Sequence record: PV189406.1
From: Escherichia phage vB_EcoP_phi367
DNA: 58,966 nt
Direction: 5' to 3' (one strand)
In this document: positions 45,001 through 51,000 of the stretch, in pieces
Layout: every line of letters starts with the position of its first letter
Numbering within the stretch: the first letter of the stretch is position 1
Program-made: the position numbers

Positions 45001-48000
45001 TCAAATTTTGTACCAGCAGATTACCAGCAAATTACCACCTCAAAGCCAGCAATACCAATGCATGCAAGCAATACTGTACCAGCAGATTACCAGCAAATTA
45101 CCACAGATAAAGAATATAATAATATTATCTCTAATACTGACGTATTAGAGAGTGCCACAGCAGACAAAAAGTCTGACAAGAAAAAACCTTCCGTCAGCTG
45201 TCAGGATGTTGTCGATGCTTACCACGAAATCCTTCCTGAAGCGCCAAGAATCCGCGCACTGAATGACAAGCGTAAAAACCAGATCCGAACGTTCTGGCGC
45301 AAAGCCGGAGTGATAACACGCCAGCTTGACGGGCATGGGTTCACGATGCAGGACTGGAGAAATTATTTGAGCTACGTAGGCGAAAATTGCCGATGGATGT
45401 TCGAAGAGCGTCCAAACCATCAACGCGGAACTATCTGGCACAAAAAGGGATTTGATTTCCTGCTTAACGATAATACCTACCTGAAAGTTCGTGAGGGTGA
45501 ACACGATGACCGATAATTTTTATGCGCCGCCCCATAGCATCGAGGCAGAGCAGGCGGTGATTGGTGGATTGCTTCTGGATGATGACAGCAGTGAGCGCGT
45601 CCAGAAAGTTCTGGCGATGCTGAAGCCTGATTCATTTTACAGCCGACCACACAAAATCCTTTTCGAAGAAATAACCAGAATGCACCGGGAGCAAAAGCCA
45701 GTAGATGGCCTGACGCTTTTCGATGAACTGGAGCGTAAATCGTTAACGGTGTCTGTTGGCGGTTTTGCTTATATCGCTGAGATCGCAAAGAACACGCCAA
45801 GCGCAGCAAACATCGTTGCCTATGCAATGCAGGTTCGTGAAACCGCAATGGAACGCTACGCCATCAACCGCATGACTGAAGCGACGGAATTGCTCTATTC
45901 CCGCAACGGAATGACTGCGACGCAGAAGTACGAAGCTATTCAGGCGATTTTCACGCAACTGACAGACCATGCAAAAACCGGATCGCGTCGCGGCCTTCGC
46001 TCATTTGGCGAGGTCATGGAAGACTGGGTTAGCGACCTTGAGAAGCGATTTGACCCATCAGGCGAACAACGGGGAATGAGCACAGGGATCCCATCGCTGG
46101 ACAGGATGCTGTCACCGAAAGGTCTGGTGAAAGGCTCTCTGTTTGTCATTGGCGCTCGCCCTAAGATGGGGAAAACGACGCTATACAGCCAGATGGCAAT
46201 CAATTGCGCAGTGCATGAGAAAAAGCCCGCTCTGATGTTCAGCCTTGAAATGCCAGGTGATCAGATACTGGAAAAACTGGTAGGGCAGAAGTCTGGTGTT
46301 AACCCGAATATTTTTTACCTTCCGGCGACAAATGACGCCGATGACGGCTATCAGGGTGATTACGATGGTGACTTCAACAGGGCGATCGAAACAGCCAATC
46401 GCTTGAGTGAAATCGACATGCTTTACATCGACGACACGCCGGGATTATCTCTGGCTCAAATCGTCAGCGAAAGCCGTCGAATCAAGCGAGAAAAAGGATG
46501 TGTTGGCATGATTCTGGTCGATTACCTGACACTAATGACCGCTGAGAAGGCCGATCGCAACGACCTTGCTTACGGCATGATCACCAAAGGACTGAAGAAC
46601 CTTGCCAAAGAGCTTGATTGCGTTGTTGTGCTTCTGACGCAACTTAACCGCGCACTGGAAAGCCGAACCAATAAACGCCCATTACCAAGTGACTCACGAG
46701 ATACAGGGCAGATTGAACAGGATTGCGATTATTGGGTGGGGATCCATCGTGAAGGTGCTTTTGATGACAGTGTTCCACCTGGTGAAACCGAACTAATCCT
46801 TCGTCTCAATCGTCATGGCAATACCGGCACGGTGTATTGCATTCAGGCAAATGGCGCTATTTATGACACAGACCAACAGTCTGCTGAAATGCGCCGACGT
46901 GAACGCGAGGAACCGCAGTCCAAGAAGAAAGGAGGATTCTGATGAATAAAAAACAATTAGCCATTCTCGAAAAGGCATGGGATGCGCAAATATCATACGC
47001 TTTGAAAGAACAGGCACTACCAATAATCCAGACCAAATCGAAAATAGCCAGGCAGTTATGCGATGGCGGATTCCTGAACGAAGTTGAGATTACGCGCCAG
47101 ATGGTAACGTTCAAAGGGTATGAGATAAATCATCATGGTATAGCGGCGTATTGCTCCCATCTTCCTGATGACGTTGACATTGATGAAATGGAAAGGGAGA
47201 TGAAGCAATGACCATCTACATCACTGAGTTAATAACAGGCCTGCTGTAATCGCAGGCCTTTTTATTTGGGGGAGAGGGAAGTGAACGATAGCTACCGACA
47301 GTTTGAAAACTGGTGGTCAAAAGACAAAAGCCAGTTCACGGGAGACGATGAATTAAAAGAGTTTGCCTGGGTGATATGGCAGGCATCGCGCTCTGCTATT
47401 GAACTGGATATCGACTGGCCCGAATCGAATGACGACCTTTGGAAAGATGGTGAAGAAGGTGCTTATGCGATGGGTTATGAGGATGGGCGTGACAAAACGG
47501 TAATTGCAGTAATGAAAGCCATCAGGGCCGCAGGAATCAAAGAAAAGAATTTCGATTAAGCAAATATCACTTCAATAAATCGCTTTTAAGGCATCACAAT
47601 CGCTCTGTGGTGAGGTAAGCACGTGCAAGGTATACCGATAAGCAGCGAGAATGAAAAATGCGTCAGAATGCGTTTGAGGAGGTTTTAAGAAATGAGTACG
47701 ATAGCTGAGCTTGTCAGGGCTAATTTTCGTGAAGAGTTGGTGCGTTGGTATCGGTATCGTTCATCGTCCAGTTTGCCGCTTGATGAGTTGTATGAGCATT
47801 CACCTGCCGCACGACGCTATCCGCGTGACCGTGTTCTTCGACGGTTGTTCAAACTCAACAATGAGTTTCAGCGCAACAGAATTATCCGGAGTCTGGATTT
47901 TAAGTGAAGGAGTGAGCATGAGCGACCTATCATTAACCCAGCCAAAGCTAAAAGAATGTCCGTTTTGCGGCGGTAATGCTCGTCTGTGGGTTGAGGCCGG

Positions 48001-51000
48001 AATAAATATTGATGTGTGGGGCTATGCAGAATGTGACCTCTGTGAAGCCAGGGTGGCATGGGCACCATCAGTTGCTGCGGCTACTGAAAAATGGAACCGG
48101 AGAGCAGGAGATGAAGCAAACCTTTCTGCTTCGCAACGAAGCAATCAGAAATAACGCCATAGACGCCATTCTCTCACTACCCATCGACGACAAGTCACCC
48201 CACGAAGTCCACGTTAAAGAACCCAAGCGCAGCAAAGCGCAGAATGACCGCATGTGGCCGATGCTGAACGATGTTTCGCGTCAGGTGCTATGGCATGGTC
48301 AACGGCTGGCGCCGGAAGACTGGAAAGACCTGTTCACTGCCCTGTGGCTTAAGACCAAAAAACTGGAGCAAAGAAGTGCGCCTGGTATCGACGGTGGCGT
48401 TGTCATGCTTGGCGTGCGTACCAGCAAAATGCGAAAGGCCAGCATGACTGAGCTTATCGAAATCATGTTCTGGTTCGGCTCAGAGCGCAACGTGCGGTGG
48501 AGTGATGACTCCCGGCGAGAGTATGAATGGTCACAACGAAAAGGGAAGGCTGCATGACTATCAAATCAAATACGCCAGCACACGACAAGGACTGCTGGCA
48601 AACGCCGCTCTGGCTTTTTGATGCGCTGGATATTGAGTTTGGATTCTGGCTGGATTCAGCTGCGAGCGACAAAAACGCTCTGTGCGCTCACTGGCTAACT
48701 GAGGCTGACGACGCGCTAAATTCTGAGTGGATAAGCCACGGTGCAATCTGGAATAACCCACCGTACAGCAATATCAGGCCGTGGGTGGAAAAAGCCGCTG
48801 AGCAGTGCATACAACAGCGACAGACGGTAGTTATGCTTGTGCCAGAGGATATGTCAGTCGGATGGTTCAGCAAGGCTCTGGAGAGTGTCGACGAAGTTCG
48901 CATTATCACTGATGGACGGATTAATTTTATCGAACCATCGACAGGGCTGGAGAAGAAGGGAAACAGTAAAGGCTCCATGCTGCTGATTTGGCGACCGTTC
49001 ATCAGTCCTCGACGGATGTTTACTACCGTATCCAAAGCGGCATTGATGGCGATCGGGCGGGGCGTCAGGAGGGCGGCATGAGACGACAGCGACGAAGTAT
49101 CACCGACATCATCTGCGAAAACTGCAAATACCTTCCAACGAAGCGATCCAGAAATAAACGCAAGCCAATCCCAAAAGAATCTGACGTAAAAACCTTCAAC
49201 TACACGGCTCACCTGTGGGATATCCGGTGGCTAAGACATCGTGCGAGGAATACAAGGTGATTGACCCAAATCGAAGTTACGAACAAGAAAGCGTCGAGCG
49301 AGCTTTAACGTGCGCTAACTGCGGTCAGAAGCTGCATGTGCTGGAAGTTCACGTGTGCTCCGATTGCTGCGCAGAACTGATGAGCGATCCGAATAGCTCA
49401 ATGTACGAGGAAGAAGACGATGAGTGAGTTAATAAATGGCAATGCCATCAAAATGACAAGCATTGAAATCGCTGAGTTGGTGGGTAAGCGTCATGACAAT
49501 GTGAAACGTACCATCGAAACGCTGGCTAAAAATGGTGTTATCCGGCTTCCTCAAATTGAGGTTTCCGAAAGAATCAATAACTTAGGGTTCAATGTTCAGT
49601 ACGAGCATTACGTCTTCGAAGGCGAACAAGGAAAGCGAGACAGTATTGTCGTTGTAGCCCAGCTGTCGCCGGAATTCACCGCTCGCCTTGTTGACCGCTG
49701 GCGAGAGCTTGAAGAAGCTGCGGTTAATATCCCCAAAACGCTACCAGAAGCGTTGCGCCTTGCTGCTGATCTTGCTGAGCAGAAAATGCAACTGGAAAAC
49801 CAGCTCGCAATTGCCGCACCTAAAGTTGAGTTTGCCGATCGCGTTGGCGAGGCCAGCGGAATTTTGATTGGAAACTTTGCAAAGGTTGTTGGTATTGGTC
49901 CAAACAAACTGTTTGCGTGGATGCGCGATCACAAAATCCTTATTGCTTCAGGTGCCCGGCGCAATGTGCCAATGCAGGAATATATGGATCGCGGCTATTT
50001 CACAGTGAAAGAAACAGCGGTCAATACAAATCACGGAATACAGATATCGTTCACCACAAAAATCACCGGGCGTGGTCAACAGTGGCTGACAAGAAAGCTG
50101 CTAGATAACGGAATGCTTAAAGTAACAGGGGAGGCTGCTTAATGGCTAAACCAGCGCGAAGGAAATGCAAAATCTGTAAGGAATGGTTTCACCCGGCATT
50201 CTCAAATCAGTGGTGGTGCTGCCCGGAACACGGAACTCAATTAGCACTCGAACGACGAAGTAAAGAACGCGAAAAAGCGGAAAAAGCAGCAGAGAAGAAA
50301 CGACGACGAGAGGAGCAGAAACAGAAAGATAAACTGAAGATTCGAAAACTCGCCTTAAAGCCCCGCAGTTACTGGATTAAACAAGCCCAACAAGCCGTAA
50401 ACGCCTTCATCAGAGAAAGAGACCGCGACTTACCATGTATCTCGTGCGGAACGCTCACGTCTGCTCAGTGGGATGCCGGACATTACCGGACAACTGCTGC
50501 GACACCTCAACTCCGATTTGATGAACGCAATATTCACAAGCAATGCGTGGTGTGCAACCAGCACAAAAGCGGAAATCTCGTTCCGTATCGCGTCGAACTG
50601 ATTAACCGCATCGGGCAGGAAGCAGTAGACGAAATCGAATCGAACCATAACCGCCATCGCTGGACTGTCGAAGAATGCAGGGCGATCAAGGCGAAGTATC
50701 AGCAGAAACTTAAAGACCTGCGAAACAGCAGAAGTGAGGCCGCATGACGTTCACCGTAAAAACCATTCCTGACATGCTCCTTGAGGCATATGGAAATCAG
50801 ACCGAGGTAGCCCGAATACTGAACTGCAATCGTGCCACAGTCAGAAAATACATTGGCGATAAAGAAGGGAAAAAGCACGCCGTCGTCAATGGCGTCCTTA
50901 TGGTTCATCGCGGATGGGGTAAAGATACTGATGCGTGATATCCGGCAGGTTCTTGAGCGCTGGGGTGCATGGGCGGCAAATAACTATGAGGATGTTACAT

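Follow-up and report, generated by a model that had tools for sequence, protein, structure and literature searches.

The genes for a Lar-like zinc-ribbon protein, the recombination mediator NinB and a Dam-family DNA methyltransferase lie next to each other in Escherichia phage vB_EcoP_phi367. The sequence analysed, referred to below as the window, is the whole 58,966-nucleotide (nt) stretch of record PV189406.1. The locus makes up the left portion of the nin region (replication genes to Q) of a lambdoid phage of the 933W/VT2-Sakai type, and the block is an ordinary, standard nin region of Shiga toxin (Stx)-type lambdoid phages that is already known. We consider it likely, with a probability of about 0.8, that Lar and Dam are independent mosaic modules within this ordinary nin region and not a co-evolving system. 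An earlier note on this DNA had named six open reading frames (ORFs; Lar-like, NinB, Dam, NinE, Ral and MT-A70). All six are borne out in both coordinates and family, with profile E-values of 1e-9 to 1e-64, far beyond chance, and matches well above curated cut-offs (Table 1).

The gene order of the block is DUF7301, lar-like, ninB, dam, ninE, ninF, ant, ninG, ninH and Q. The Stx1a prophage of E. coli 2013C-3250 is colinear with the region and 99.5% identical to it in DNA sequence, and PA28 (99.2%), VT2-Sakai, Stx1- and Stx2-converting phages and many others are 97-99% identical. Matches to the block occur in 418 phage records and in 2187 of 5426 complete E. coli genomes. Its genes are publicly annotated as DUF7301, Lar family restriction alleviation protein, NinB, phage N-6-adenine-methyltransferase, NinE, NinF, antirepressor, NinG, NinH and Q, and lar was listed among the conserved Stx-phage genes by Smith et al. 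in 2012 (PMC3430580); the finding is therefore already known. The nin regions of VT2-Sakai, 933W and PA28 (H0102-H0103-H0104(ninB)-dam-ninE) have the same gene order and overlaps as the window. PA28-type phages differ in that about 1.4 kb, encoding an additional Ant and a hypothetical protein, is inserted between ninE and ninF; this insert is missing from the window, the stretches compared being 4483-6249 of PA28 (L001) and 49081-49427 of the window. Two further loci (L077 and L082) have an insertion of about 0.5 kb between ninB and dam.

As the earlier note had seen, the lar-like gene overlaps ninB, by 44 nt. The coupling of ninB to dam and of dam to ninE also stands, in that each junction is an ATGA overlap, but it is not special to these genes. 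Further overlaps lie between ninE and ninF (GTGA), ninF and ant (8 nt), ant and ninG (1 nt) and ninG and ninH (ATGA), so that stop/start overlaps join every gene from lar to ninH and coupling characterises the nin operon as a whole. Because lambda has the order ninB-ninC-ninD-ninE, the window Dam sits, as proposed, in the ninC/ninD slot. The gene displaced from the ninC slot is retained elsewhere in the phage genome: a PAPS-reductase-like NinC homologue, 80% identical to lambda NinC over 283 amino acids (aa), is found in the leftward early region at 34897-35775 (-).

All four combinations of Lar and Dam exist next to ninB. Both are present in the window, in a Salmonella prophage (L170) and in a Kluyvera prophage (L171); Lar is present without Dam in L165-L169, L181 and L092, and Dam without Lar in L065, L066, L073-L075, L176-L179, L182, L204, L207 and L212; neither is present in lambda, L180 or L183. 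Of 80 IMG/VR loci that share the ninB allele of the window, each that reaches far enough downstream has Dam adjoining ninB, and eight lack DUF7301 and Lar despite ample upstream sequence. Salmonella prophages carry a Lar allele 46% identical to that of the window, with the same 44-nt overlap and an identical C-terminal tail, followed by ninB and then directly by ninE, without Dam. The Lar-NinB-Dam order is found with Lar alleles 49% (Salmonella, L170) and 43% (Kluyvera, L171) identical. A ninB-anchored scan of one genome per species gave 44 loci, a small sample with no correction for phylogeny: nine have Dam after ninB but no Lar, one has Lar before ninB but no Dam, and none has both. Within the limits of that sample, Lar and Dam do not co-occur beyond what slot order and shared ancestry would give, as a co-inherited module should. 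The existence of all four combinations indicates instead that the arrangement reflects a fixed order of exchangeable slots.

Many matches to ninB stem from lambda DNA contaminating unrelated assemblies and were discounted in the scan. Identical lambda nin regions occur in assemblies labelled as Oceanobacillus, Bradyrhizobium, Nocardioides, Shewanella and other organisms (L190-L203, L208, L213, L215, L217 and L218), often on low-coverage contigs of about 48.5 kb, and are almost certainly lambda control-DNA contamination.

Beyond ninB, 94 clusters cover the neighbours of 73 diverse Lar-family genes, and no partner dominates: RecT and YopX account for three each, C5 methylase and HNH for two each, and NinB, Dam, SSB, YqaJ and N6_N4 methylase for one each. 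A general link of Lar to recombination genes or to methyltransferases was rejected on account of this heterogeneity. A two-gene, toxin-antitoxin-like module of DUF7301 and Lar was likewise rejected, as the two co-vary only among near-identical loci. In Salmonella prophages DUF7301 lies upstream of the Lar variant with another gene in between; it is undetected in L167 and absent from L170 and L171.

The Lar-like protein carries the motifs C14-P-F-C17-G-G and C39-D-L-C42 and exceeds the curated cut-offs of both family models, PF14354 (37.8 bits; cut-off 28.6) and TIGR03655 (61.4 bits; cut-off 39.6), with an E-value of 1.5e-38 to phrog_599. The earlier note had allowed that homology searches might place it outside the Lar family, which is not the case. 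It is identical to VT2-Sakai H0103 at 76 of 78 positions and has the family signature, a four-Cys zinc ribbon (K-x-C-P-F-C-G ... C-x-x-C) followed by a W-N-x-R helix. All four cysteines (C14, C17, C39 and C42) are invariant across 74 homologues, with conservation of at least 90% at W59, N60 and R62, and the signature is also present in 59 IMG/VR sequences; a word-indexed protein search from the single sequence returned six relatives, and a profile search was needed for the wider set. An AlphaFold2 model (predicted local distance difference test score, 81) consists of a zinc knuckle, a beta-hairpin (21-27/33-39) and a helix (52-60). Its low-confidence, disordered tail is the stretch read from the 5' end of ninB, residues 64-78 being a translation of 48111-48154 in another frame. 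A Foldseek search of the model against the Protein Data Bank (PDB) matched only generic nucleic-acid-binding zinc ribbons (RNase P Rpp21, RPB9/TFIIS; best E 0.38) and no nuclease-like fold, and PDB sequence searches with the Lar-like protein and with Dam gave no meaningful match.

The 15-residue tail is identical in the Salmonella Lar (P0006), which is otherwise 46% identical, and this points to a recombination joint between Lar alleles inside the overlap. The shared tail read from ninB concerns 48111-48154 of the window, P0006 and L165-L171. In 933W (NC_000924), Min27 (NC_010237), L090, L034 and L051 the Lar-like ORF aligns in two parts or is shortened; given these apparent frameshifts and deletions, the gene appears to be dispensable in some prophages.

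The window NinB matches its Pfam profile over the full length (PF05772, positions 1-131 of 131), is 43% identical to lambda NinB and is located after the replication genes. Lambda Orf (NinB) is a recombination mediator that loads recombination proteins on single-stranded DNA, and we know of no anti-restriction role for it.

Dam belongs to the M.EcoVT2Dam/HP1 Dam/T1 Dam family of small single-domain enzymes with an NPPY motif (PF05869, 217 bits; TIGR01712 equivalog, 264 bits against a cut-off of 97, residues 2-168 of 175), from which it shows no material difference. Inactivation by motif mutations, which the earlier note had also allowed for, is not seen in the sequence: the motif is intact at N67-P-P-Y70 (IWNNPPYS). 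Dam is identical to VT2-Sakai dam at 173 of 175 positions, with two substitutions (I60V and R168Q) outside the motif. M.EcoVT2Dam is listed as an orphan methyltransferase for GATC with reference to Radlinska and Bujnicki 2001 (PMC6602927), and at this level of identity the window enzyme probably has the same specificity. The family is widespread in phages, with 1900 records that include virulent T1-like phages.

Ral is the only securely assigned anti-restriction function in the phage. It is identical to lambda Ral at 65 of 66 positions over its full length, with one C-terminal substitution (Q61L), and, as in lambda, its gene lies beside N in the pL operon. The claim of two modifiers of type I restriction in the earlier note thus holds for Ral, whereas the Lar-like protein has the family name and 36% identity to the disputed RalR. 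The window contains five EcoKI and 18 EcoBI sites, which makes type I restriction a real threat to the phage. EcoBI sites are over-represented (18 against 7 expected), as are EcoRV sites (32 against 14 expected).

The MT-A70 enzyme matches its family profile and has an intact DPPW motif. It is identical to phiPA8 gp5 at 207 of 208 positions, and the adjacent specificity subunit PNB-2 is identical to PA8 gp6 at all 143. The published PNB-2 cloning primer and the gp7-gp6 terminator match the window exactly, at 33032-33049 and 33066-33091, respectively. The module, with its upstream terminator, is like phiPA8 gp5/gp6 (M.EcoPA8orf6770P-PNB-2) and M.EcoGV, no difference having been found; the whole unit of enzyme, PNB-2 and terminator (31995-33091, -) is also 99.8% identical to O104:H4 phage P13374. 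The phiPA8 holoenzyme of Gong et al. prefers 16S rRNA, is more than 13-fold more active on RNA than on DNA, is near background on DNA in vitro, and raises spontaneous prophage induction (PMC10810198). For M.EcoGV, in vivo methylation of GATC is seen only on over-production, according to work cited in PMC10810198. By this published evidence on a near-identical enzyme, the MT-A70 protein of the window would be an rRNA methyltransferase. The idea of two self-methylating enzymes therefore does not hold for MT-A70, and for Dam an evasion role is conjectural. 'At least four restriction-evasion functions', as claimed in the earlier note, are unsupported as stated, only Ral being secure.

In the reading we favour, in which Lar and Dam are independent modules of an ordinary nin region, three unrelated accessory functions adjoin because exchangeable slots follow one another in a fixed order in lambdoid phages. 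By analogy with lambda, the nin genes are presumably transcribed from pR as N-dependent delayed-early genes. Judging from its family, with the zinc ribbon and WNxR helix, the Lar-like protein would most likely make type I enzymes of the EcoKI kind restrict unmodified phage DNA less and modify it more, as described for Rac Lar and lambda Ral. NinB would load recombination proteins on single-stranded DNA, as lambda Orf does. Dam would methylate GATC, probably keeping the fast-replicating phage DNA fully methylated, which may shield it from methylation-sensitive nucleases that cut at GATC and from host processes that depend on hemimethylation.

Several points weigh against the roles in restriction that are assigned here to Lar and Dam. 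The type I-modifying role of the nin-region Lar-like protein is read from family membership, and homology at just 36% identity to Rac Lar is a weak base for a function label. The protein fails the RalR equivalog model NF007260 (28.7 bits against a cut-off of 113). With Ral already in the phage, another modifier of type I systems would be superfluous unless it acted on a different type I family. Dam+ enteric hosts already methylate GATC, so that the gain from a phage GATC methylase against restriction is doubtful; only in unusual hosts, or as a means of 'keeping up' with rapid replication, would evasion by this route be plausible. In lysogen cultures, Riley et al. detected the Phi24B Dam orthologue, which is 100% identical to VT2-Sakai Dam; its expression changes on induction, and they proposed that it supplements host Dam in lysogeny, host Dam being needed for stable 933W lysogeny (PMC3342100). 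Within the Lar family, in vivo alleviation of EcoKI restriction with enhanced modification was shown for Rac Lar alone (King & Murray 1995, cited in PMC3177214). Guo et al. 2014 described the same protein, as RalR, as a non-specific DNase toxin that does not inhibit restriction-modification, and the family name may therefore mislead (PMC4041452). In the literature on restriction enzymes, Lar and Ral continue to be described as factors that enhance de novo methylation by EcoKI (PMC3177214).

The cluster of the earlier note, in which lar, ninB and dam are co-selected and translationally coupled for anti-restriction and make up four evasion functions together with ral and MT-A70, is in our view decidedly unlikely. 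The three genes do adjoin and overlap, the Lar-NinB-Dam order does recur with Lar alleles only 43-49% identical in L170 and L171, DNA methyltransferases directly adjoin Lar-family genes in 4 of the 94 neighbour clusters, and over-produced M.EcoGV, highly similar to the MT-A70 enzyme, does methylate GATC. However, NinB acts in recombination, Lar and Dam assort independently in all four combinations and share none of the species-representative loci, the overlaps continue through ninE, ninF, ant, ninG and ninH, and the phiPA8 counterpart of the MT-A70/PNB-2 pair prefers 16S rRNA. For Dam itself, a mainly regulatory or housekeeping role (lysogeny stability, induction frequency, or replication or packaging of fully methylated DNA) instead of restriction escape is possible but, in our view, rather unlikely. 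It would agree with the Phi24B observations, with the Dam+ state of the hosts and with the under-representation of GATC in the window, where 158 sites are observed against 229 (base composition) and 262 (Markov model) expected. It accords less well with the wide occurrence of the family in virulent T1-like phages, for which control of lysogeny has no relevance and which are usually taken to use such enzymes against restriction.

It is unlikely, though worth stating, that the nin-region Lar-like protein is no anti-restriction factor but a zinc-ribbon protein acting on DNA, either a RalR-like nuclease or toxin or an accessory of recombination linked with NinB, RecT or Exo. Rac Lar (RalR) of E. 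coli K-12, whose current record reads ralR, 'endodeoxyribonuclease toxin', with a small RNA (sRNA) antitoxin ralA, shares with the window protein the Pfam and TIGRFAM families, the CPFCG...CxxC ribbon, the WNxR helix and a position beside recombination genes. The two differ in that Rac Lar lies after recT, whereas the window gene overlaps ninB, has the tail read from it and lacks a RalA partner. We regard it as improbable that the window protein is a DNase toxin like that of the RalR/RalA type I toxin-antitoxin pair, one that damages DNA instead of acting on restriction enzymes; any alleviation of restriction would in that case be indirect, via the DNA-damage-induced ClpXP pathway. The common family and the reported non-specific endonuclease activity of RalR (PMC4041452) speak for it, as does the WNxR motif that holds RalR K52, mutation of which inactivates RalR and abolishes its toxicity; the motif is kept as W59-N-R-R62, with K52 aligned to R61. 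Against this stand the failed RalR model, a predicted fold that resembles generic zinc ribbons and no nuclease, and the embedding of the gene in a lytic operon instead of a stand-alone toxin cassette. Moreover, searches of the window gave no significant RalA homologue and no Rfam hit in this region. Antisense complementarity to the lar-like mRNA (47900-48160) nowhere reaches 14 nt, and its longest run, 13 nt, is at the level of chance; the toxin reading is thus without its defining partner RNA. That the protein is an accessory factor of recombination, with NinB/Orf as its partner or, in other phages, RecT or Exo, seems very improbable to us. Lar-family genes of enterobacterial prophages do lie directly after recT (L126, L127, L142, L143, L145 and L150) or after bet-exo (L118 and L129) or overlap the start of ninB (window, L092, L165-L171 and L181), and the 44-nt overlap is kept with three different Lar alleles. 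Yet outside the enterics the neighbours are heterogeneous, with RecT, NinB, SSB and YqaJ together in 6 of 94 clusters, many ninB genes have no upstream Lar, and the recombination joints inside the 5' end of ninB, marked by the identical C-terminal tail of P0006, explain the conserved overlap. If the Lar-like protein were indeed no anti-restriction factor, thousands of 'Lar' database annotations would rest on one 1995 phenotype of a 36%-identical relative.

Table 1. Features of the nin region and related loci in the window (positions in PV189406.1)
Feature	Position	Strand	Evidence and remarks
Terminator-like hairpin, tR2-like position, upstream of nin genes	47237-47269	+	8-bp stem, 6 GC, then TTTTATTT; strong; hairpin at 47237-47259; consensus scan only
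DUF7301 small protein, 71 aa	47692-47907	+	PF23975, 91.4 bits; phrog_1785; directly 5' of lar-like gene
Lar-family 4-Cys zinc-ribbon protein, 78 aa	47918-48154	+	ATG start; PF14354, TIGR03655, phrog_599
NinB (Orf) recombination mediator, 148 aa	48111-48557	+	PF05772, 163.9 bits; phrog_72
Phage N6-adenine DNA methyltransferase (HP1/T1/VT2 Dam family; predicted GATC), 175 aa	48554-49081	+	PF05869, TIGR01712
NinE	49078-49260	+	PF05322, 146 bits
NinF	49257-49427	+	GTG start; PF05810, 51.7 bits; identical boundaries annotated in NZ_CP027380
Rha/Ant-type antirepressor, inserted between ninF and ninG	49420-50142	+	PF03374, PF09669, phrog_63
ninG	50142-50747	+	ORF; annotated NinG in colinear NZ_CP027380
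ninH	50744-50938	+	ORF; annotated NinH in colinear NZ_CP027380
ral, restriction alleviation protein, pL operon	41452-41652	-	PF11058, 162 bits
MT-A70 methyltransferase, orthologue of phiPA8 gp5 (M.EcoPA8orf6770P) and M.EcoGV	31995-32621	-	PF05063, 80 bits
PNB-2, specificity subunit of MT-A70 holoenzyme	32618-33049	-	TTG start; identity to PA8 gp6

The function of the hairpin upstream of the nin genes is suggested by the organisation of the lambda nin region, and it would fit lambda-type, N-dependent nin genes. No stx genes were found downstream of Q (51365-52587), where VT2-Sakai carries stx2AB; only about 530 nt occupy the corresponding position, which identifies the phage as a stx-negative 933W-like phage. 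Q is followed by genes for tRNA-Met(cat) (51807-51882) and two tRNA-Arg (51890-51966 and 51980-52056), then by a match to the Rfam STnc100 sRNA (52160-52365) and a 645-aa ORF at 52587. Elsewhere in the window, Rfam matches are found to sRNA-Xcc1 (65 bits; 33785-33874, -), upstream of an antA-like gene, and to the lambda cIII thermoregulator element (88 bits; 40680-40738, -).

As a discovery the block has small value, because hundreds of Stx phages and E. coli genomes in the thousands are annotated with these genes in this order, and the cloning of the Dam orthologue dates from 2001. What is gained is a corrected set of function calls for the window: Ral alone is a secure anti-restriction function, the MT-A70 enzyme is better assigned to rRNA, as its phiPA8 counterpart suggests, and the Lar label should be read as one that derives from weak homology to a contested protein.

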